The notes: a model not told the origin generated them from the letters alone. A stretch of DNA of 60,401 nt from Promethearchaeota archaeon Loki_b32 (GCA_005223125.1 NJBH01000024.1:1-60401), one strand, 5' to 3'; counted from the stretch's first letter, positions 1 through 12,243 are shown. Numbers and translations: made by a program.

Positions 1-1
1 T

Positions 2-478
2 CTTTGGGGAATATTTCCATCAATGCAACCATTAACAGCAGAATGCTTTGCTCCCATAAATCAATATCCCGCTATATTAAATGACATTGATCAATGGGAC
101 ATGGAACATGATGAAGATATACGAAAAATATTTGAAATTACCAAAATTCGGTCTATAGCAGGAAGTGGTCCTGTTTTGCTTATAGATGGCAATAATGTGG
201 AAATAACATGTGGATTTACAAGTTTCTGGAGTTATTATAATGGAGAAGTTCATAAATTTATAGATGAAATAAATCTAAAGCTATGGGAATCATTATTAAA
301 AAGAGTTACTGAGCAGGGTGTGCAATGGTATATGATGGGAGATTTTATGTCGCGTTTAATGGTAGATTTAGGAGCATATTCAGAAGAATTTTATAATTTA
401 ATGAAATCAATAAAAAAAACTCTTGACCCAAATATGATTTTAAGTAGAGGAAAATTTAATTTTTGGGGTGAAAAATAA
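2..478 (+). CDS. FAD-linked oxidoreductase (GlcD/D-lactate dehydrogenase family), C-terminal part; gene starts before the window
   Basis: Frame open from position 2 (LWGIFPSM...). C-terminal IKKTLDPNMILSRGK motif. Colinear paralog of 12263-13768. Confidence 0.85.
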   Translation, partial: LWGIFPSMQPLTAECFAPINQYPAILNDIDQWDMEHDEDIRKIFEITKIRSIAGSGPVLLIDGNNVEITCGFTSFWSYYNGEVHKFIDEINLKLWESLLKRVTEQGVQWYMMGDFMSRLMVDLGAYSEEFYNLMKSIKKTLDPNMILSRGKFNFWGEK

Positions 479-480
479 AA

Positions 481-540
481 GTGAGTGAATTGAAACATTT
501 AAAGGAAGAATGGGAGGCTAAATTCACCTCTATTAGGTTT
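481..540 (+). pseudogene. Truncated N-terminal remnant of an Fe-S oxidoreductase paralog
   Basis: GTG at 481 reads MSELKHLKEEWEAKFTSIR, which aligns with MDDMKNLRKQWQAVFSC at 10977. It runs into the 3' end of the island gene. Confidence 0.5.
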
Positions 541-1621
541 AGGAAGAAAAATTTTCTCCCTTTAACCAAACAATAAATGAATCTTCAGACTCTTCTTTTG
601 GAGGTTCTTCTTTGTCATATTTGTAATTTACAGGTCTGCAAACTACTAAAGAAACATTGTCTAATAAAACACCTGCTAAGCTAGATCCTATTGATTGAGC
701 TTTTGACCCAAATGGAGAGATTATAATATGAAATTGATCATTAAAGATTCTTTTTTTAGAATCATAAAATTCTTTTATACCTAAAAAGAATTCAAAAGGA
801 TTATTATAAGGTAAATATAACATTTTATCAAATTGAAAATATTTATTAAAAAATTCTTTATTTTTTAGGAGAATATTAGTCGATTCCTCAGGCCATTGAG
901 TTGGAAATGTAATAATGGGATATAAACTTGCATTTTTTTTAAATTGTCGTTGATCTAAAACAAGCTTTATTAAATTTGGATCATATGATAAGATAGGCAA
1001 CCAAAAAACCATAGCATCCTTTTTCAATTCTTTTTCAAATAATGGTAAATTAATACTTAGATCATAATTCTCTACATTATGGTCGAAAGTAAATCCTCCC
1101 TTATTTGTCCATATAATAAATAAATTTGCTGTATCAACTAATTCATAAAAAATTTTGATTAAAGGAATAAATATTGCTCGAGGAATCGCTGAAACATCTA
1201 AAAAAATATTTTTATAATTTTTTATTTCGATTTTATCATTTATAATATTATAAATTTCTTCATGTCCAACTATATTTTCATATTCATTTATTCTGTTGTA
1301 TGGGATGATCCTTAAATTTAACTTATACTCATCTTTCAATTTTTCTAAATTCTTTATATTCTCACTTGTTTTCTCGTCAATTTCCTTACTTTCTTCTATC
1401 CCGTAACCTTTTATTTCTTCTGATATTGAACTATGAGATTTTAAATAGAAATAAAAAAAATCAACTTTTAATTTTTCCAATTTCTTTAATTTAACTAATG
1501 ATTCTAAAGATGAGAAGGATCTTAATTCAAATCCAACATTTGCTATAAAAAGTGAGTTATCAAAATCGAAGCATTTAATGAACTCTCTCCATTCTTCAAA
1601 ATAGTACCAATTTTCAAACAT
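539..1621 (-). CDS. Hypothetical protein with two CARF-like/Rossmann-like halves (third gene of PRTase-ATPase operon)
   Basis: Motifs FIANVGFELRS...IFLDVSAIPR and WLPILSYD...IIISPFGSKAQS resemble the strand-turn-helix signature of CARF/DUF6293-like domains. The fold call is inference. Confidence 0.55.
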   Translation of the reverse strand: MFENWYYFEEWREFIKCFDFDNSLFIANVGFELRSFSSLESLVKLKKLEKLKVDFFYFYLKSHSSISEEIKGYGIEESKEIDEKTSENIKNLEKLKDEYKLNLRIIPYNRINEYENIVGHEEIYNIINDKIEIKNYKNIFLDVSAIPRAIFIPLIKIFYELVDTANLFIIWTNKGGFTFDHNVENYDLSINLPLFEKELKKDAMVFWLPILSYDPNLIKLVLDQRQFKKNASLYPIITFPTQWPEESTNILLKNKEFFNKYFQFDKMLYLPYNNPFEFFLGIKEFYDSKKRIFNDQFHIIISPFGSKAQSIGSSLAGVLLDNVSLVVCRPVNYKYDKEEPPKEESEDSFIVWLKGENFSS

Positions 1622-1629
1622 TTTAAAAC

Positions 1630-3714
1630 CTAGATGTTGTGATTCTTAATGAAATCAAATAATGTTTCCTTTACTCTCTTTTCTGGAGGAATTTTTCCTT
1701 TAATTATATAGTTTATAATTTGATTATAATCCAATATTCTATACCCACCATATTTTATAGGTAAATTGTAATAAACGCATATTAATCTGTTGAAATAAAA
1801 TGCATATTCAGATTTCTTTTGGAATTCTCGACTATAACCCTTACTGATGTCCTTAGAAATTATATATGAATTAGCTAGTGCTTCATTAATAAAATTATTT
1901 TGTTTTAATGATAAAAAATCTTCTAGTTTAGAAAGAGCAAAACCAGTTCGTCCATTATCATATGACAAACGAATATTAAATTGATCACGTAAGAGTTTTT
2001 CGATAGTATTAATGAAGTTAAATAATAATTTCCCATATTTAGTACTTTTTATCAACTTATCTTTATACTTCAATTTAGCATATTCATGAATTGCCTCATT
2101 TTGAAGTTTGTAGTTAATTTCGGGAAATTCAAAAATAGAACCATATTGTTTTATTTGCCAGGCAAAATATTTTCTAAAAATACTGTCTAAAATCTCAAAT
2201 AAATCCTTAATGACATATGATGAAATTTTAATAATTGTATTAACTCCTGAATAAATCTTTTTTTTTTTTTCTTCTTTAGCAATTAAGAACAGACACATAT
2301 TTTTCATATTTCCAAAATTTTCAATTCTTTCACGATTGTTCTTGAGATTGCCCTTGATTTTGACCAAATTATGAATAGGGAGTTGATTTTTATATTCTCT
2401 CGCTGTAAGCCCTTCGCATATTCTTCTATCAATTGGATTTTCAATTGACATTAAAAATCGATATATATCTGATAAATAAATCAAATCTGTTATAAACTTT
2501 TTATCATTTATTAAATCAGATCCTTTAAGAATATTATTCACATTAGATTCATTCAAGGGTTCATCATAATTCATTATATTTTGAAAAGTTTCAATAGAAT
2601 CAAGTTTTTTAAGGACATTTTTTGAACATCGTTTAAAAAAACTATCGCTTTTTATCAAAGAACTATTTTCAGAATAAATTTTTGCTTCTTTTAATGGATC
2701 TAATTTAGGAAATACTTCTTCAATTTTGTTGAAATAATAATTATATTTTCTCAATCGGTAAATAATTATATCTTTCGCCATTTTTGAATAATAATTCTTT
2801 TTAGAATTAATTAGAATATAATCTAAATCGATAATAATAAGATCTCTTGTATCAAAATTATTCAATTTCTTACTTATAGAGGGTTTATCTCTACTTAATA
2901 ACTTAATTTCAAGTTTTTTGGTCCTCCTTCCAAATATTTCCAGTATAGGTTCGATTAAATTATCTGGTAGCCATGATAAATCATCCAATAACAATATTAT
3001 TCTTCTCAAGCCTAGTGGATTAGAATTTGTAATATCATTAATCACATCAGAAAAAAATTCTTCAGAATAAAATCTTAACTGATTTTTTTTTTCCTCAATT
3101 GATTTATAAGTACTTAAGAAATTACTTATTAAATCTAATTTTTCTCTGATTACTTTTTTTAGTTCATTTAATGTAGTTGTAGTTTTTATAAAATCAGGTA
3201 TATTTTCACTTTGCCATTCAAATTTGGTGTTTAAATTAAATAAACATTCAGTTTTTTTGAAAAAATTCTCTATATTTGATATAAATTGCATAATTACGAA
3301 AATTGAGAAATAAAAAATGAATAATTTTTTCCATTCATCTCCTTTGAGTCTTGATCCATAGAAATTCTTATTCAAATCTTCATGTAAATTTATATAAAAA
3401 CCAAAGAAAGGTAAAATCTCATTTTTATTAGATGATTTCAAATATTCATATAAAAAATCAAATTTTTTAAGATTTTTACTATTAACCTCTAATACTACAT
3501 CCCATACTAATAATCGGATTAAACTTGATTTTCCGGTTCCAGGAGCACCAAGCAAGATATTATCAATACTCTTAAAAATTGCTGTCAATTCCGGTATCTT
3601 GAATGGTTCAACTGATAATGAATAGATGTAATCCTTAACGTCAGTATTTAATAATTCATTTCTCCCAATTTGAAATGGATTAGGAGGTGCATCAAAATTT
3701 CGTCTTTTTATCAT
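1630..3714 (-). CDS. Large P-loop ATPase, STAND/ORC-CDC6-like
   Basis: N-terminal NPF, Walker A LLGAPGTGKSS, Walker B IILLLDD. 694 aa. Separated from its neighbours by 8-10 nt. Confidence 0.75.
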   Translation of the reverse strand: MIKRRNFDAPPNPFQIGRNELLNTDVKDYIYSLSVEPFKIPELTAIFKSIDNILLGAPGTGKSSLIRLLVWDVVLEVNSKNLKKFDFLYEYLKSSNKNEILPFFGFYINLHEDLNKNFYGSRLKGDEWKKLFIFYFSIFVIMQFISNIENFFKKTECLFNLNTKFEWQSENIPDFIKTTTTLNELKKVIREKLDLISNFLSTYKSIEEKKNQLRFYSEEFFSDVINDITNSNPLGLRRIILLLDDLSWLPDNLIEPILEIFGRRTKKLEIKLLSRDKPSISKKLNNFDTRDLIIIDLDYILINSKKNYYSKMAKDIIIYRLRKYNYYFNKIEEVFPKLDPLKEAKIYSENSSLIKSDSFFKRCSKNVLKKLDSIETFQNIMNYDEPLNESNVNNILKGSDLINDKKFITDLIYLSDIYRFLMSIENPIDRRICEGLTAREYKNQLPIHNLVKIKGNLKNNRERIENFGNMKNMCLFLIAKEEKKKKIYSGVNTIIKISSYVIKDLFEILDSIFRKYFAWQIKQYGSIFEFPEINYKLQNEAIHEYAKLKYKDKLIKSTKYGKLLFNFINTIEKLLRDQFNIRLSYDNGRTGFALSKLEDFLSLKQNNFINEALANSYIISKDISKGYSREFQKKSEYAFYFNRLICVYYNLPIKYGGYRILDYNQIINYIIKGKIPPEKRVKETLFDFIKNHNI

Positions 3715-3724
3715 GATAGAAACT

Positions 3725-4921
3725 CTATTTTTTATGTCTTTCTACTCGAGGAAATAATGGTCTCCAATTGTCTGGATACCAAATTAAATAAACTGTATTA
3801 TTTGGTACATTATTGTATCTAACTATGGATAATCCTCTATTTCCAAACCCATATTTAATTCCATCACCTAATTTATAGGGGGGCTTTAATGTAGGTTCTA
3901 TTCTTTCGTAATAATCATCACATAAATTCTTAAATCCTTTTGCATCTTCTCTTTTAATGTTTCTAAGTTCTGAATTTGAACATTCCTCTATAACTCTCAG
4001 TTCATTCGGAATAACTAACTGAGGCAAAATATGTATTTTGTCATAGTTGATAATATAATTTAAGTTTCCATAATATTTTAACATAGATTCTAATCGACAT
4101 TTGGAAAAGTATGTTATAATATAGGGGCAATATATAATTTGATAATCTTTATTAAAATCAAGTAAATGATTCCAATAACTTATAAATTTAATAAGTTGAC
4201 CTCTGAGTTCAGGTTTCTTTAATTTCTCATTTATTTTAATTTCATTAGTGTTTTGAATAGTGTCAATATTTTTCTCAGATAACCAAAATTCGATATTATT
4301 CTTATCTCTCAAGAAAGTAGTACCAGTTCCTACAAAATCTTCAAGCAGGAAAAAAAACCTATACGTTTTTTTTCTTTCTTCAAAATTTTTAAAAGCTATT
4401 TCAAATTGAGCATCAGTATGTAATTTGTAATATGATATTGTTTGATCATTATCTTCTATATTGAATCTTCGAAAATCATCAATCATAGCACCATCACTCA
4501 ATGCAATAAATAAAGATTGATTTAGATAATCCTTTAGATATTTGAAGGCTTTATCATATTCTAAGGAACCATATTCATCATTTTCTTCAATTATTTTATT
4601 CAAGAGATATTTTCTTATTTTTTCTCGAAAAATTTGATGTGAAAGTATCTTCATTTCTTCTCTAGTAAAAAATATCACACAATCTAATACTTTTAATGCC
4701 TTCATTCTATCTTCTGGTTTGAAATCTTTTAACCATAAATAGAGATGCTGAAAAAAACTTAAACCAGGGGAAAAATGTTCATAATTCTTGAATTTTACCT
4801 CATTTAGAAATATTAGATTTTCTTTAAACTCATCATCAAGTTTAAAGTCTACTAATTCATCAATTTTATTAAGTATAAAAGTATCTTCCGCCCAAAGTGA
4901 TTCCATAATTATCCTTTTCAT
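3725..4921 (-). CDS. Phosphoribosyltransferase-like protein of the conflict-system-associated type
   Basis: PRPP-binding loop FFLLEDFVGTGTT. C-terminal YGFG...NNVPNNT...W...WRPLFPR. Confidence 0.75.
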   Translation of the reverse strand: MKRIIMESLWAEDTFILNKIDELVDFKLDDEFKENLIFLNEVKFKNYEHFSPGLSFFQHLYLWLKDFKPEDRMKALKVLDCVIFFTREEMKILSHQIFREKIRKYLLNKIIEENDEYGSLEYDKAFKYLKDYLNQSLFIALSDGAMIDDFRRFNIEDNDQTISYYKLHTDAQFEIAFKNFEERKKTYRFFFLLEDFVGTGTTFLRDKNNIEFWLSEKNIDTIQNTNEIKINEKLKKPELRGQLIKFISYWNHLLDFNKDYQIIYCPYIITYFSKCRLESMLKYYGNLNYIINYDKIHILPQLVIPNELRVIEECSNSELRNIKREDAKGFKNLCDDYYERIEPTLKPPYKLGDGIKYGFGNRGLSIVRYNNVPNNTVYLIWYPDNWRPLFPRVERHKK

Positions 4922-5047
4922 CCAAAATAGTTAAAATTTTAAATTTTTTAATTATTTCATAATTTATAACAATTTATTTAAATATCTGTCTCTTAATTTT
5001 TATATAAATATAATAATTTAAAAATCTTAACGAATTGGATATTTTTT

Positions 5048-7180
5048 ATGGTGTCTAAAGAGATTTTTATTACTGGTTTAATAACTACTGATCATATTGT
5101 AATCGAGAACGGAGGATATAAGAGTTATTTGGGTTCTATTGGAGGGGGTTCTGCTGCAAATGTATATTTTACCTTGAAAACTTTTAATACTCCGGCTAAA
5201 TTGATTGGGGCAGTAGGCGAAAAAAAGCCTTACTTATCCAAAGTTGCGATAAAAGATTTTATTAATGATTTAGATGAAAATATAATCTACCATAGTAAAA
5301 ATTCCGAAACTAGGGAATATTATCATATAATAGAAAGAAAAAATGGTACATGGAGACATAAATTTAGTTCTGCTTCACCTTTTTCAAATTCTAAGCAATC
5401 TTTCTCAGTGCAATTAAGGAAATCATACTTCTTCAAGAAATTCAATGATTCAATAATGAGTTGTGCTATTTTTTACTTAGATCGGCTTTCTAAAGGATTG
5501 CTTGAATTAGCAGAAATTGCTAAAAAACGACAGATACCTATAATTTTTGATTTTGGTACTATTTCTACAAGATACTTAAAGACTAATCTAATCTTAAAAG
5601 CTATTAAAATGGCAAATATTATACAAATTCCTAAAAATATTCATGAGTTTTTAAGAAGTCAATTAGAATTTAAAAAACTCCAAGATATTAATCCCAATAT
5701 TGATATATGGGTACTTACTGATGGATCTAACCCATTAAAGGCATATCATTCAAAAATTGGGGAGATTGTCATGGATATTCCTCACTTGGATAATACTATT
5801 GATAGTGGTGGGGCTGGTGATGCTTTTATGGCAATTATGATTAGACAAATATATTTTCTAAGAAAAGATAATAAAAAAATAATTGATATGGATAGAGGTC
5901 AATTTGAGGTATTTATTAAAAATTGTATCGAAAATGCTAAAAAAGCATGTATGTTTATTGGATCAAGAACCTATTTATACGAATATATAGAGAGTAGAAA
6001 TAAATTTCGTAGTTTAAATGATTATTTTAGTAATTATGAATATAATGGAAATAATATTGAAAAATCCAAAGCATTAATAGAAAATTATGGAAAGAGGATT
6101 CAAGAAATAAATGATAGTATGAATCAGAGAATAAATAAAGAAAATTTAAAATTAAAAAAAGGCCTAAATCAATTTGAGAGTAATCTTTTAAATATTTCTA
6201 AATTTATTCCTTACGTTTTAGAAAAAACTGTAGAGTCTTTGAATATTAAAGATTTAGGAGGTTCCTTAATATTAATAGGCTCTGGAGCTTCTTTTAGTGT
6301 CGCTAAAGCAATACAGCAAATTTTCTCCCCACCAAATAATGTTCTATCAACTTATTCTTTCACACCTTATCAATACATATTAAAAATTAATGAGAATTAT
6401 CCAATTTGTATTATAAGTTACAGCGGTACTAATAATGATGTTAAAAGTTGTTTTAAAAAGGCTAAATTAAATAAAAGCAAAAAAATTTATCTTTTAACCA
6501 GTAATCGTGATTCAGTTTTATCCAAACAAGTTGAAAAGCATACAGGTGGAAAGGTTTTCTATATTAATACCTACAAAAGTGAAAAGGGATTTGTTGGAGT
6601 ATATTCGATGATTGGTAATATTTGTGTATTGGCAAAAATATTACTAAGCAATAATTGGAAATCAGAATATTCAGAATACCTTTCTGAAAAAAACTTACAT
6701 AAATTAATAAATAGTTATATTGTAAAAATGAGTAAGAAGATTCAATTAATTAAAAATAAAAACCCATCAATAAAAAACCATATCGTAGCTCTGGGTACAA
6801 ATTGGGCTGAACCAGTATTATACGATCTAGAATCAAAGATAGTTGAATCAAATTTGGGAACAATTGAAATTTCAGAATTAAAAAATTTTACACATGGAAG
6901 ATATGTCAATCTTTATAAAAATCCTGAGAATAGACTTGTGTTAATTTTCAAAACACCTGAGACTGAAAATTTAACGGATTTTCTTACTGAAAAATTATCA
7001 AAAATTGCACCAACCATAGTTTTAGAGACTAAAAAAGAGAGTTTTTTAGGAATGATCGATTTATTCATACAAATGTTAGTTTTCATTAATGAATTAGGTA
7101 AAATATATCATCAAGATCCATCAAAACCCGGTTTCCCTGAAGCAGCAAAGGGTTTATACAATTGGAATGGTTTATTGTGA
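5048..7180 (+). CDS. PfkB-family sugar kinase fused to two SIS (sugar isomerase) domains
   Basis: GGGSAANV and DSGGAGDAF (PfkB signatures). LIGSGAS, ISYSGTN and ELKNFTHG (GlmS-like tandem SIS). Confidence 0.85.
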   Translation: MVSKEIFITGLITTDHIVIENGGYKSYLGSIGGGSAANVYFTLKTFNTPAKLIGAVGEKKPYLSKVAIKDFINDLDENIIYHSKNSETREYYHIIERKNGTWRHKFSSASPFSNSKQSFSVQLRKSYFFKKFNDSIMSCAIFYLDRLSKGLLELAEIAKKRQIPIIFDFGTISTRYLKTNLILKAIKMANIIQIPKNIHEFLRSQLEFKKLQDINPNIDIWVLTDGSNPLKAYHSKIGEIVMDIPHLDNTIDSGGAGDAFMAIMIRQIYFLRKDNKKIIDMDRGQFEVFIKNCIENAKKACMFIGSRTYLYEYIESRNKFRSLNDYFSNYEYNGNNIEKSKALIENYGKRIQEINDSMNQRINKENLKLKKGLNQFESNLLNISKFIPYVLEKTVESLNIKDLGGSLILIGSGASFSVAKAIQQIFSPPNNVLSTYSFTPYQYILKINENYPICIISYSGTNNDVKSCFKKAKLNKSKKIYLLTSNRDSVLSKQVEKHTGGKVFYINTYKSEKGFVGVYSMIGNICVLAKILLSNNWKSEYSEYLSEKNLHKLINSYIVKMSKKIQLIKNKNPSIKNHIVALGTNWAEPVLYDLESKIVESNLGTIEISELKNFTHGRYVNLYKNPENRLVLIFKTPETENLTDFLTEKLSKIAPTIVLETKKESFLGMIDLFIQMLVFINELGKIYHQDPSKPGFPEAAKGLYNWNGLL

Positions 7181-8042
7181 TTATGTTATGGTAGAATCTT
7201 TTTTCAAGCTAAGAACCTTTCCTAAAAATTCTATTTATAATATAATCAATGCTAAACTAAGAAAGATCGATAAGTTTAAACCCTTTTTGTTAAAAACTTT
7301 AGATAAAAATCTTAAATCGATCTTTAAAACCCATTTTAGAGGCTTAGCCTTAGATTTTGATGGAACTCTAATTCCTTTAAAGGATAGATATCAGATTGTT
7401 GAATCCAGCATTTTAAGAATATTACTTTTATTAAATCGCAAAAAATTTCCGATATTTATATTAACTGGAAGAGGTAAGTCCATATTCCAACAAATTCCCT
7501 TTAATGAGTTCATACATATTAATCATATTATTATTGTTCAATATAATGGAGGACGACTAAGATATGGTAATCAAGATTTAATTAAAGAGGAAAATATGAA
7601 AACAATTAAAAATTATTGTGAAGTAAAGATGATTTTAGATAAAAATGAAATTCAATATGCAGAAAAAGTCTCTGGATTCTTCTGTCAAACGACTTTTGGG
7701 AGTGATCAGATTTTTAATGCAATTCAAGAAAAATATAAAAATTGGAATGTTTTGAATACAAAATATAGTTTTGATATAGTGCCTTCTCATATATCTAAAG
7801 GTTTAGCTTTAAAATATTCATCAAAATTATTTTGCAAATTAAAAAATAGCTTAATATTGAAAATTGGAGATTCGGGAGATATTAATGGAAATGATTACAG
7901 CTTTCTTAAAATGAAAAACAGTTTTTCTGTTGGTGATTATTCTTCAGATCTGAACACAAATTTTCCAGTAGTTGATGAAAATAATATTCATTTAAAAGGT
8001 CCTGACGGTTTAAGATATCTTTTTTCTTATTTTTCTATTTAA
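7167..8042 (+). CDS. HAD-superfamily subclass IIB phosphatase
   Basis: LALDFDGTL, ILTGRG, SKG, IGDSGDINGND. Overlaps the upstream gene by 14 nt. Confidence 0.85.
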   Translation: MVYCDYVMVESFFKLRTFPKNSIYNIINAKLRKIDKFKPFLLKTLDKNLKSIFKTHFRGLALDFDGTLIPLKDRYQIVESSILRILLLLNRKKFPIFILTGRGKSIFQQIPFNEFIHINHIIIVQYNGGRLRYGNQDLIKEENMKTIKNYCEVKMILDKNEIQYAEKVSGFFCQTTFGSDQIFNAIQEKYKNWNVLNTKYSFDIVPSHISKGLALKYSSKLFCKLKNSLILKIGDSGDINGNDYSFLKMKNSFSVGDYSSDLNTNFPVVDENNIHLKGPDGLRYLFSYFSI

Positions 8043-8118
8043 TAATATATTTGAAAAAATGGAGAATAATTTACACCCTTTTTTTATTTATATACTTTTT
8101 TAATAATAATAAATATTA

Positions 8119-9570
8119 ATGGAAATATCTAAGATAAGAAATGCATTAAGAAATATTGATTGGTCTAAAATTTGCAATTGTTGGAGTGTGGAAGTTCGGA
8201 AAAATCAGTATTCTCAATATCAAAAAATCACTTTAAATCCATATCAAGAATGTTCTGATAATAATCCTTTATATAAGCATAAAGATTGGCTAAAATATCT
8301 TTATTATAGTGAAGATTTTCAAATGACTGATGAAAAACTTGCTAAATTATGTAATATTACAAAGGATGCAGTATATTACTGGAGAAAAAAGATACATGAT
8401 CTTAAAGGAAAGGATGAATGGGGTGAAGGTCGCTGGATTGATAATAGGAGTAAAAGAATATACATCAGAGTTCCAAAAGATTATAATCATCCCCAATTGA
8501 CTTTAGAAAAGGGAAGAAAGCGGTTATATAGACCTGAACACACATATCTTATGGAAAAGTTCTTATCTGACCGTCCAGAATTGGAAATCTCTCATAAATA
8601 TCTAATTGATGGAAAATATTTAAAAAAACAATGTGAAGTACATCATATTAATTTTAATCCCCAAGATAACCGAATTGAAAACCTATGGGTATATGAAAAC
8701 AAGAATTCACATGCTAAAGGAGAGAAATCGATAAGAAAAGTATTTTCAATTCTAATAAAATCAAATTGTATTGTTTTTATAAAAGGTAAATATTACTTTA
8801 ACCAAAACCTTGATATTAATTGTGTATCTCGTCCAGAAATAATCAATTTAGAAAGAAATCAATCCAAAAATAATCCAATTAATAATATGTGTTTAAACGA
8901 AATTCAAGAAGCAATAAAAACGATAAATTGGAATAATATTTCTAGAAATTGGAAAGTAATTAAACATTATAATCAATTTAAAGAAGAAATAATCAACCTA
9001 AATCCATATAAAAATTGCTCCGATGAGAATCCTCTTTACATGCATAAAGAATAGTTTAAGAGGATATATACTGATCCCCGTTTTAACCTTTCCGATTCAA
9101 AACTAGGAAAAATCTGTAGTATTTCTAAAGATAAAGCAAGATATTGGAGAAAAAAAGTACACAGAATTGAAGGAAAAAAGGAGTGGGGAATTGAACGGAT
9201 AATTGATAAATCTGATGGTCGTGTCTGGGTACGTGTACCTAAAACCTATTACAATCCCGTTGTAGATAAAGGAAAATATCATAGAAGAATTATGATTGAA
9301 CATCGTTATATTATGGAGAAATACTTATCAAAACATCCTGAATGGGGTATTTCGAGAAGATGTCTTATTGATGGAAAATATTTAAAATCAGAATGTGAAG
9401 TACACCACATTAATCTTGATTATCAAGATAACAGAATTGAGAATCTTTGGGTTTTTGAAACAAATGAAGCACATCAAGAAGCAAGAAGATCCTTATATGC
9501 ATTAGTAGAAACTTTATTGAATAGACGAATTATAAAATTTGAAGGTGGATTTTACAGATTAGAAAATTAA
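8119..9570 (+). pseudogene. Internally duplicated HTH-HNH endonuclease with one in-frame TAG (9052-9054)
   Basis: Two copies of HHIN...DNRIENLW...H. ORFs 8119-9054 and 9292-9570 share a frame. The TAG sits where repeat 1 has Trp (HKDWLK vs HKE*FK). Confidence 0.8.
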
Positions 9571-9687
9571 TTTAAAATAAAGATGTGGATCAAAAAGCAA
9601 AAAATATCATTATATGGATGAAAATCACATTTTCAAAAAAAGGCAATATTATTTTTTAATCTTGTTGATCTATTACTTTTTTAAGTT

Positions 9688-10803
9688 TCATAAAGAGCTT
9701 ACCCAATCTCTAAATTTTAATTCTTCAAAATCTATTGTACCTTCCTTCCCACCGAATAATTTCTTAAATTTTAGATCTAATCCTTCTTCTTTTATATTAG
9801 GATTTATTAATATTATATTTACATTTTTTTCTATATCTACTCGATTTAATCCTTTGATGAAATAATACTTTGATATAAAATCTGCATCAGGAAGAGAATA
9901 TCCTATAAGATATATGAAATCTGCTTTAGATAATTTCTGAATGATATTCAACCAAATTATATTAAATATTGGATTTTTGAAGTTTTTCAAATGAGTTAAT
10001 GGAATTATATTTTCTAATAATCTAACTCTTCTTAATGGATTTTCTCCAAATGAGTTAGGACATTCATAAAAATAAGAGGGATAGAATATGAGATTAATTC
10101 CAGGTAAGTAATAGTAATTATAACATTTAGGACAATATAACCAATTTAAAGAACTATGAGGTTTAAGGAGTAGTGGGACCTCATCAGAGTTAAAACTTAA
10201 GTTAATGTCAGAGTTCTTACATCTACACTCTTATACAACATCTTTCCAACTATATCCTGTTGATTCAATAAAATCTTTCATCGGAATAAAATCAAATCCA
10301 TAATTTAAGTCTTGGAAAATGGCTTTAACAGCATTATCTATTAAAGTATCATAATTAAATGAGATGATTGTGTCATTTTTATTTAATTTTTTAACAAAAC
10401 TTAGATAAGGTTCTGTCGTTCCGTCATCATTTAAAGATTTTTCTATGGACTTACAAATGGTCTCTCTGATAAGGAAAATAAAGTCCTCACGACGAATAAT
10501 TGTACGATCCCCTTCTGATTCATAAAGAAGAGATTCCTCTTTTTCGTAAGCAATATCGAATAATGTAAAGATATCTTCTATATTTGGTAAATTTGAATTT
10601 TGAATTTCCAGAAGGGAGTCTCCTACATAATATCTTGGATTTGGCTGAATCTCTAGAATTCTTGATAGTATATCTTCTGTATATAAAATATCTTTTTTCC
10701 GCTTAGATTTTAATATTTCAACATATTTATTTAAAAAATTATTTCCTAAAGGAGCACCAGCATGTAAGGATGCTCCAGCTCCAAATACAAAAATTCTATT
10801 CAT
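9688..10803 (-). pseudogene. SIR2-like (SIR2_2, defence-type) protein with one in-frame TAA (10231-10233)
   Basis: FVFGAGAS, ISFNYD, LKPHSSLNW, CPKC and IGYSLPDAD all lie in one frame across the stop. The canonical HGS reads HSS. Confidence 0.8.
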
Positions 10804-10976
10804 AATTTTTAAATTGATTATAACTTATTAAATTTCAATCAGATTCTTAATCTCATATTTAGATATGAAATAAAATATTTATATTTCAATGGTTCAATAT
10901 ATATCCATTAAAATATAAATATTTTAATAGATGTTGAATACTCAAAATTTTAAGAAATAGATTATTTTTGAGAGAT

Positions 10977-12243
10977 ATGGATGACATGAAAAATTTGCGT
11001 AAACAATGGCAAGCCGTATTTTCCTGTATAGATTTTAGATATATCATCTAAAACGCAGAAGGGATGCGGCGATTGTGGGTATGCTATTAGACCTGCAGTT
11101 GGAAGATACTTAACATGTCCTGTATTGGAAGCTAAAGGAGATGAAGGATTTGAAATATATTTTTCAAGAGGACGTATGAATGTTTTAAAGAGTATTTTAG
11201 AAGGCCAAATCCCATTGAGTAAAGAACTCGCAGAATGGGTATATCAATGTTCTGAATGTGGAAATTGCACTGAAGTTTGTCATATGTCTCAGAATCCAAA
11301 TATTGTTCTCCCCACGTGTAATTGGATAGATCATGTGAAAGTATGGGAAGCATTAAGAAAAGATTTGGTTGAAGCTGGTTTTGCTCCACTTGATAGACAT
11401 AGTAATCTAATTGAATATATGGATAATGATAAAATTAAAAATCCATATGGAGAGGAGAGAAATAAAAAATTAGAATGGATAGAAGAATTTCCTGAAATTA
11501 AGGATCGGGGTGAATTCATGTTTTTCGGTGGCTGTACCATGCCTTTAAGACAAGTAGATACTCTAAGAAGTATGATGAAGATTTTAAAAGTCGCAGGTAA
11601 AGAAATCGCAATGACCAAAGAAGAATGGTGCTGTGGGTCTATTGCATTACGTATTGGTGATGAAAAATCTTTAATTGACATTGTTAAGCATAATATTACA
11701 GAATTTGAAAAAAAAGGTACTAAAACATTGTTTACAGCATGTGCTGGATGTTATAGAACTTGGAAGAAAGATTATCCTGAATTATTAGGTGAAGAATTAC
11801 CATTTGAAGTAAAACATATTACAGAAATATTAGTAGATTTACTTAATAATAACCAAATCCCTTTTAAAGAGAAAGAACAAGAAGAAGTAAAAGTAACTTA
11901 CCATGATCCTTGCCATCTAGGACGGCATATGGACCTTTATGATATCCCTCGTGAAATAATTTCTAAAATTCCAGGAATTAATCTAATAGAAATGAAAAGA
12001 ACTAAGAACAATGCTTGGTGTTGCGGAGCAGGTGGTGGAGTAAAGAGTCAATTTCCAGATTTAGCGCTCAAAATCTCAGAAGAACGAATAAAAGAAGCAA
12101 TTGAAACCGGTGCTCAAATATTGACGACAAGTTGTCCATTTTGTATAGGGAATCTGGGGGATGCATATGAGGAAATAGATGCTTCTATTAAAGACAAAAT
12201 CAAGGTTGTTGATATAATTGATCTTATTGCTTCTAAACTATAG
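10977..12243 (+). CDS. Fe-S oxidoreductase (GlpC/HdrD-like: two 4Fe-4S motifs plus two CCG domains), interrupted by a 31-nt intron at 11030-11060
   Basis: CSECGNCTEVC, WCCG, TACAGC, YHDPCHLGR, WCCGAGGG, TSCPFC. The first ferredoxin motif (CMGCGDC...CP) forms only after removing 31 nt. Confidence 0.85.
11030..11060 (+). other. Putative BHB intron in mRNA (31 nt)
   Basis: Central helix CUGU/GCAG, 3-nt bulges AUA and AAG, inner stem UUUUAGAU/AUCUAAAA, outer stem GCCGUA/UGCGGC. Excision restores the frame. Confidence 0.8.

Follow-up and report, generated by a model that had tools for sequence, protein, structure and literature searches.

A PfkB-SIS sugar enzyme joined to a PRTase-CE/ATPase/CARF6 gene set: a candidate conflict cassette in Promethearchaeota archaeon Loki_b32

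Introduction

Why should a sugar kinase fused to SIS domains be transcribed away from genes for a phosphoribosyltransferase (PRTase) and a CARF protein in an archaeal genome? The question is raised by a five-gene cassette at positions 539-8042 of a 60,401-nt stretch of DNA from Promethearchaeota archaeon Loki_b32; we call this whole stretch the window. One strand carries the genes of a PRTase of the PRTase-CE family, an ORC-CDC6-like ATPase and a CARF6 protein (hereafter the triad), and the other those of a PfkB kinase fused to tandem SIS domains (PfkB-SIS) and of a HAD phosphohydrolase. The original prediction, made without database searches, took the five genes for one defence or signalling system that makes, senses and degrades an unusual sugar-phosphate or nucleotide signal, with the ATPase as sensor and the PRTase as effector. 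Its description of the locus was confirmed: five open reading frames (ORFs), tight packing on either side of a 126-nt divergent gap, and intact motifs (Table 1). The comparison with other genomes indicates that the recurring core of the system is PRTase, kinase and SIS (with or without HAD), that the ATPase is optional, and that a role in defence or in another conflict is probable.

A recurring core with several architectures

A PRTase-CE/ORC-CDC6-like/CARF6 gene set has reportedly been defined computationally, by Nicastro et al. in 2023 and Makarova et al. in 2020. The five-gene cassette is a member of this catalogued set: it matches all three families, co-oriented and in the order PRTase, ATPase, CARF6. 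It differs in adding the PfkB-SIS-SIS fusion and a separate HAD gene in a divergent operon, where the two genes overlap by 14 nt. The catalytic motifs of the cassette are intact and kept in the homologs.

We classed the loci of PfkB-SIS homologs with domain hidden Markov models, clustered them at 90% identity and scored a PRTase when it lay within 6 kb; the resulting architecture counts cover the best-scoring loci and do not amount to an unbiased census. A PRTase is found beside PfkB-SIS in 86 of the 101 scorable clusters, the other 15 having no partner (in 18 more the contig is too short). Architecture A, with all five genes, comprises seven clusters, six with the divergent layout seen in the window and one co-directional (L093, from Hodarchaeales). 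The divergent layout is repeated in five further loci (L004, L007, L009, L099, L100), with 47-66% identity of the PfkB-SIS protein and gaps of 124-227 nt among sister loci. The two operons thus co-occur in other genomes, as had been predicted, and far beyond chance. These five loci are likely to be Asgard as well; the prediction that no example was known in Asgard archaea has to be given up, since several loci of Lokiarchaeia-like and Hodarchaeales type carry the cassette, and Pfam and PADLOC models already exist for the triad families. An eighth PRTase-CE + ATPase + CARF6 cluster, L012, has its sugar domains shuffled (SIS-HAD ... PfkB). Architecture B lacks the ATPase (PRTase-CE, CARF6 and PfkB-SIS; 21 clusters, a class IIB HAD in 8 of them), and architecture C lacks both CARF and ATPase and consists of a HAD-helical-PRTase fusion with PfkB-SIS (57 clusters). 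The view of the five genes as one unit is upheld by the reappearance of their domains in various gene orders and fusions. Given 8 clusters with ATPase and CARF6, 21 with CARF6 only and 57 without CARF, the recurring core is PRTase, kinase and SIS, with or without HAD.

The PRTase itself is replaced between these forms. In architecture C it is a type I PRTase with a DDN-x-x-T loop (Pribosyltran in 7 of 17 members, PyrR at E 1.8e-4) that does not align with PRTase-CE (HHalign probability 0.3%), and the C-terminal part of the fusion gave no alignment to PRTase-CE, CARF6 or the ATPase. In a quick tree of the SIS domains, A groups with B as its sister (SH-aLRT 100), and a long branch of its own leads to the SIS-HAD form, which argues that the window version is no simple rearrangement of the SIS-HAD cassette; the tree has SH-aLRT support only, a quarter of the RF39-type rows and a midpoint root, and we claim no order of events from it. 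Conversely, in other genomes of the phylum the triad is found with its sugar enzymes replaced, behind a DNA methylase (L196:436-5810) or a CAP12-type TIR gene (L193:2-6244), and in L194:7954-9913 a methylase and PRTase-CE are followed by the end of the contig.

The PfkB-SIS/PRTase-CE combination, the ATPase-less form and the PRTase replacement that links the forms are new here, as are the one-way dependence of the PRTase and the predicted PRTase-CE/CARF6 complex described below. We found no experimental description of the cassette in the literature, where the computational papers defining the triad may already list the sugar enzymes; literature on CARF6, PRTase-CE and PfkB with SIS in anti-phage contexts gave no account of it, and PRTases are not mentioned in Makarova 2014.

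Some variants stand beside these architectures. The two-gene C cassette (L045:7611-9947 and 56 other clusters) is common both in RF39-type Bacilli of the gut and in bacteria from the environment, and its fusion has a helical middle domain of ~230 aa. Recurring gene pairs are inserted between HAD-PRTase and PfkB-SIS in L042, L044, L057, L079, L036, L069 and L078; judged by eye from the N-termini, they are alpha/beta-hydrolase-like plus an unknown gene, or DHH-like plus kinase-like. A faint ORC-CDC6-like ATPase (L095:3851-5587; no PADLOC match) lies 2 kb upstream of one C-type cassette, beside DprA and type I restriction-modification (RM) genes. Longer proteins of 454-738 aa with a partial PRTase-CE match occur in other genomes of the phylum of Loki_b32 (L198:6928-9144, L199:7509-9299, L201:6780-8144). 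Class-I HADs near ~8 of the 13 B clusters that lack a IIB HAD were not counted as members: most have DLEGT rather than DxDGT, and their side and strand vary.

The PRTase, its predicted partner and the ATPase

The PRTase matches PF24390 (E 6.1e-23, 82.4 bits against a gathering cut-off of 27) and the PADLOC model PRTase_III-A (1.8e-16); its profile had no match among solved structures. The phosphoribosyl pyrophosphate (PRPP) loop LEDFVGTGTTF lies at ~191-203, and of the Gx14PNNxP motif (G358-N375) G358-x14-P373-N-N is kept, with V for the final P. PRTase-CE is likely the effector of the system, as predicted, since the effector with which Retron-Eco11 depletes PRPP comes from its own family.

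The CARF6 gene matches PADLOC PDLC01910 (E 5.6e-29). Its AlphaFold2 (AF2) model (pLDDT 86) aligns with Can1 6sce in VIA-align (Z 13.5, rmsd 3.5, 232 residues aligned), and the top 18 rows of that comparison are all CARF proteins. CARF6 is predicted to be a binding partner of PRTase-CE: the ESMFold2 complex scores 0.84, against 0.22 for the best of three controls, a mark reached by 58 of 80 solved pairs and 2 of 110 mismatched pairs. At least 91% of the contacts agree between runs, the partner pLDDT is at least 82, and the modelled interface includes the conserved F38, E89 and L93. Natural PRTase-CARF6 fusions in L013 and L114 point the same way.

The ATPase is a clear family member (PF24389, E 3.2e-37, 129 bits against a gathering cut-off of 27) with conserved Walker A (GAPGTGKS) and Walker B (LLLDD) motifs. 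It is single copy in the genome, and a plasmid search with it returned two weak matches only. It is an optional module and not the essential sensor first proposed, since 21 of the 29 PRTase-CE clusters do without it and CARF6 is predicted to dock on the PRTase itself.

The sugar enzymes

The Pfam matches of the PfkB-SIS protein are modest (PfkB 1.8e-4, SIS 4.9e-6). Its AF2 model of 710 aa (pLDDT 93.8) has a ribokinase-fold domain followed by tandem SIS domains, and identity to any solved structure is 11-19%. In Foldseek, the kinase part resembles ribokinases and nucleoside kinases, and the SIS part is closest to Lmo0035 (2aml), the glucosamine-6-phosphate (GlcN6P) deaminase 1j5x (TM by target 0.79), AgaS and GFAT, placing it in the GlmS/NagB-II/FrlB clan. 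Enzymes of this clan isomerise, deaminate or deglycate sugar-phosphates. The PfkB motif GAGD258 is intact, and the SIS residues E600 and H616, invariant in 87 sequences, line up with the Glu/His pair of the deaminases. The family has a signature of its own, K-[ND]-[FY]-[TS]-H-G-R, distinct from FrlD/FrlB. Two CxxC knuckles present in most PfkB-SIS fusions are lost in the clade of the window (residues 110-113 and the linker).

The HAD protein matches Hydrolase_3 (PF08282, E 3.5e-11) and TIGR01484, keeps motifs I-IV (DFDGT, TGRG, GDxGxxxGND), and scores far higher with the HAD-IIB than with the HAD-IIIA profile.

Comparison with known systems

The cassette shares parts with several known systems but cannot be assigned to type III-A retrons, ShosTA, DS-32 or the heptose pathway; a match of the whole cluster to a system already named, which would have told against the original prediction, was not found. 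The PRTase of Retron-Eco11 depletes PRPP by ~50%, and the type III-A retron PRTase is defined by its PRPP loop and Gx14PNNxP motif (PMC12746101). The window shares with these retrons the PRTase family, the loop and the Gx14PNN motif; it differs in being controlled, apparently, by CARF6, without a fused winged helix-turn-helix. Among the island ORFs there is no reverse transcriptase (Pfam, PADLOC and NCBIfam scans) and no retron non-coding RNA gene. In ShosT, the PRTase is coupled to a hydrolase that has pyrophosphatase activity (PMC11961720). Like ShosTA (PMC11961720, PMC12961424), the window cassette has a PRTase together with a HAD-like hydrolase, and the HAD-PRTase fusion of architecture C is ShosT-like. 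In the window, however, HAD and PRTase are separate genes and the partner is PfkB-SIS rather than DprA-like. Neither the window proteins nor the architecture-C fusions match PADLOC ShosT or ShosA, and no DprA-like antitoxin occurs among the island ORFs. In DS-32 the companion of the PRTase is a DarG-like NADAR hydrolase (10.1101/2025.01.08.631726). The window PRTase is weakly similar to that of DS-32 (NF053875, E 1.7e-4), and both are paired with an enzyme that might undo ribosylation; it reaches only 21 bits against a cut-off of 250, and there is no NADAR among the island ORFs.

On the sugar side, a precedent for the PfkB and SIS pair is the kinase-then-deglycase chemistry of FrlD and FrlB (PMC5270733), with which the window shares the PfkB kinase, the tandem SIS and an E...H pair 16 residues apart. 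Here, in contrast, PfkB and SIS are fused and tied to a PRTase, and the island has no transporter gene. FrlB itself (3eua) ranks below Lmo0035, NagB-II and GlmS for the window SIS. The suggested analogy with the ADP-heptose pathway (GmhA/HldE/GmhB) did not hold: the SIS is tandem and of the GlmS/NagB-II/FrlB type, not single-SIS like GmhA, the HAD is class IIB, not HAD-IIIA like GmhB, rfaE_dom_I scores 17 against 345 bits, and there is no nucleotidyltransferase gene.

CARF6 shares its fold with the CARF receptors of type III CRISPR systems (Can1, Can2/Card1, Csm6), which differ in having a nuclease domain. Cas10 (TIGR02577) and SMODS (PF18144), searched with one model per family, had no match in this 95.5% complete genome, in which positive controls were detected; this suggests that the CARF ligand comes from elsewhere.

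Possible functions of the cassette

The presence of the PRTase seems to depend on that of PfkB-SIS, and not the reverse. Among 301 genomes of an RF39-type Bacilli order, all 21 that carry the C-type HAD-PRTase have PfkB-SIS within ~2 kb, whereas PfkB-SIS occurs in 49 (16%), at least 12 of these copies being full length, intact and without a PRTase match. A further count gave the same one-way dependence in 9 of 10 cases. In ~5 of the 21 genomes the PRTase gene is damaged, being split, truncated or interrupted by a stop.

We tentatively favour a reading in which a PRPP-consuming, CARF-gated effector makes a product that PfkB-SIS recycles by FrlD/FrlB-like chemistry. The whole would be a horizontally acquired conflict system of the abortive-infection type. 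PRTase-CE would bind PRPP and, on release, move the phosphoribose to an acceptor or to water, to judge from its relatives in Retron-Eco11 and ShosT, with PRPP drained or a toxic ribosylated adduct made as the outcome. CARF6, predicted to sit on the N-terminal helices of the PRTase, may gate it through a small ligand, and the ATPase could be an optional upstream sensor or remodeller. HAD might pull the reaction by hydrolysing pyrophosphate, or trim a phosphate from the product, as the HAD domain of ShosT suggests. In the weakest step, PfkB-SIS would serve as antidote and recycling arm, phosphorylating the ribosylated product and then deglycating or isomerising it to ribose-5-phosphate. Leaky PRTase activity would be harmless through PfkB-SIS until infection tips the balance, and two divergent operons would allow effector and recycling arms to be expressed separately. 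We favour the antidote arm because PfkB-SIS tracks the PRTase and not the sensor, can persist without a partner and offers chemistry of the deglycase type, and because DS-32 offers an analogue in its PRTase and NADAR pair.

Several observations weigh against this reading. Two of the 21 Bacilli genomes (G608 and G707) have a stop or frameshift in PfkB-SIS beside an intact PRTase, which a strict antitoxin would not allow unless these are assembly errors. The one-way dependence was seen in incomplete and mutually related metagenome-assembled genomes, and is for this reason a pattern rather than a statistic; it also fits the loss of a costly effector from a pair of signal-maker and effector. The SIS domains resemble FrlB (3eua, E 3e-5) no more than they do GlcN6P deaminases or GlmS, and the antidote model leaves the CARF ligand unexplained. 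Finally, the defence genes around the cassettes were tallied as raw counts without a background control: the families that recur in the 110 ORFs flanking A, B and environmental C loci include type I/II/III methylases, SIR2, Mrr, Schlafen, an AbiEii-type ATPase and transposases.

An alternative that also falls somewhat short of even chances places PfkB-SIS at the front end and HAD as an off-switch, the enzymes turning a sugar or nucleoside that derives from infection into the ligand of CARF6 or a non-canonical donor for the PRTase, in either case a sugar-(bis)phosphate. This is the signal model of the original prediction with the receptor changed from the ATPase to CARF6. It is nearly as likely as recycling because the triad accepts other front ends, the methylase (L196, L194) or TIR gene (L193) standing in the place of the sugar enzymes as if these were interchangeable signal-makers, and because the CARF ligand has no other apparent source in a genome without Cas10 or SMODS matches. 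The intact PRTases beside a broken PfkB-SIS in G608 and G707 are also on its side. The predicted make-sense-degrade scheme, however, does not alone explain the 57 clusters of sugar enzymes and PRTase without CARF; with CARF and ATPase both absent, only the donor version fits, or a sensor in the helical middle of the fusion. The orphan PfkB-SIS genes, at least 12 and intact, would in addition be signal-makers with no receiver.

A mobile module for stress or metabolite damage that is not anti-viral, for example one draining PRPP or ribose-phosphate or repairing glycated metabolites, is improbable. Its enzymes do come from metabolic families, PfkB-SIS is present in a sixth or so of the RF39-type Bacilli sampled, and some loci have housekeeping neighbours (L010, L012, L013). 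Against it stand the PRTase-CE relatives of tested function, which are anti-phage effectors, the CARF fold, the RM, SIR2, Mrr and Schlafen neighbours, and a patchy distribution: of 400 genomes in the phylum 2 encode the PfkB-SIS protein, and of 53 congeners none. We found no relatives of PfkB-SIS in IMG/VR viral contigs or PLSDB plasmids. A chance insertion of an unrelated defence triad next to genes of ordinary sugar catabolism or heptose-type envelope synthesis can be dismissed almost entirely: PfkB, SIS and HAD are common catabolic families and the operons are divergent, but in L093 and L012 sugar domains and triad are mixed within one operon, the SIS and HAD subfamilies are unlike GmhA and GmhB, and, as anticipated, the homologs do not sit in sugar-catabolism loci, the 25 commonest neighbour families of the flanking ORFs including no sugar transporter, phosphotransferase system (PTS) or nucleotidyltransferase family.

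We found no tested defence system in the literature with a ribokinase-family kinase or a SIS isomerase or deglycase, and the PRTase immune effectors (Eco11, ShosT, DS-32) bind or deplete PRPP with no acceptor identified. The cassettes may even represent a class of immune or toxin-antitoxin chemistry, a generalisation that we consider doubtful, in which the PRTase writes a phosphoribosyl adduct (glycation-type, Amadori) or uses a non-canonical phosphosugar, the kinase-SIS erases or supplies it, and a PRTase-bound CARF reads a CRISPR-independent sugar-phosphate, across at least two PRTase families and both bacteria and archaea, including Asgard. This would provide a CRISPR-independent CARF clade with both its ligand and the protein on which it acts directly, and Asgard immunity with a further system. 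The family offers a minimal two-gene version (HAD-PRTase and PfkB-SIS), three- to four-gene versions with CARF6 and the five-gene version, so that subtraction of one version from another can isolate what the PRTase makes, what CARF6 binds and what the ATPase does.

The island and its insertion site

The cassette sits in a ~10.4-kb insertion (~545-10970). In all 10 same-genus genomes compared the site is empty, with window 1-520 joined directly to an Fe-S/CCG gene that starts near 11000 here, and the GC content of the five genes is 25.3% against 29.9% for the genome, below 99% of its 7.5-kb windows. The predicted island location is thereby borne out, as is the mobility of the five genes. One run of public DNA reads has the empty-site joint (480->11065), and two runs cover pieces of the island, none bridging the left junction. 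The flanks are an imperfect direct repeat (481-545 and ~10977-11040; the left copy is identical to the right at 24 of 35 positions). No integrase or transposase was found among the island ORFs, and no exact target duplication. That the island truncates the host Fe-S gene was considered and rejected, since a second 5' end with an intron was found. The repeat reaches into the start of this intron, whose hairpin may be the insertion target.

Table 1. Coordinates of the cassette, the island and the flanking host gene within the window.
Feature	Position	Strand	Remarks
CARF6 protein	539..1621	-	360 aa; tandem CARF-like Rossmann domains, without effector domain
ORC-CDC6-like STAND-type P-loop ATPase	1630..3714	-	694 aa
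PRTase-CE	3725..4921	-	398 aa
Divergent AT-rich intergenic gap	4922..5047	no strand	126 nt
PfkB kinase + tandem SIS fusion	5048..7180	+	710 aa
HAD class IIB (Cof-like) phosphohydrolase	7167..8042	+	291 aa
Left island boundary	481..545	+	host Fe-S/CCG oxidoreductase gene, degenerate copy of its 5' end
HNH_3 gene, island passenger	8119..9570	+	premature stop 9052-9054; outside the conserved cassette
SIR2-like gene, island passenger	9688..10803	-	premature in-frame stop 10231-10233; PADLOC Aga_SIR2 5.1e-6
Right island boundary	10977..11065	+	host Fe-S/CCG gene, functional 5' end with ATG at 10977 or 10986
Candidate bulge-helix-bulge (BHB) mRNA intron	11030-11060	+	31 nt, inside the Met codon of the first CxxC of the Fe-S/CCG gene

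The HNH and SIR2 genes are decayed, as first described, with one in-frame stop each. The HNH gene occurs once in the genome and consists of two units of helix-turn-helix plus HNH_3, duplicated in tandem within the gene. The host site is a hotspot of variable cargo, since a related strain (L248:1-4837) carries at the same place an HNH homolog with different cargo, an 892-aa metallo-beta-lactamase-fold gene. The Fe-S gene of this strain has a TGA just past the intron. A second copy of the FAD-oxidase gene, with 93% nucleotide identity to window 1-520, was found at G000:C27:2815-4386; the Fe-S gene that follows it breaks off at the same C-M-G codons, where a fragment of an acyl-CoA ligase takes over, a structure due to rearrangement or mixed assembly.

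A candidate intron in the flanking host gene

The Fe-S gene has an insert that is probably spliced from its mRNA, as suggested by sequence and predicted fold. The insert contains a stop, its ends fall on both cut sites of a canonical bulge-helix-bulge, and its removal restores the C-M-G-C motif, placing the true start of the gene at 10977 or 10986, not at TTG 11125. Its fold has a z of -4.1, and the genome encodes a tRNA splicing endonuclease. In 17 loci from several genera the same codon holds an insert of 29-31 nt, always with an in-frame stop; 16 have the 4-bp central helix and 16 an open frame of 391-398 codons downstream, and the hairpin interiors are only 43% alike. Other relatives have no insert.

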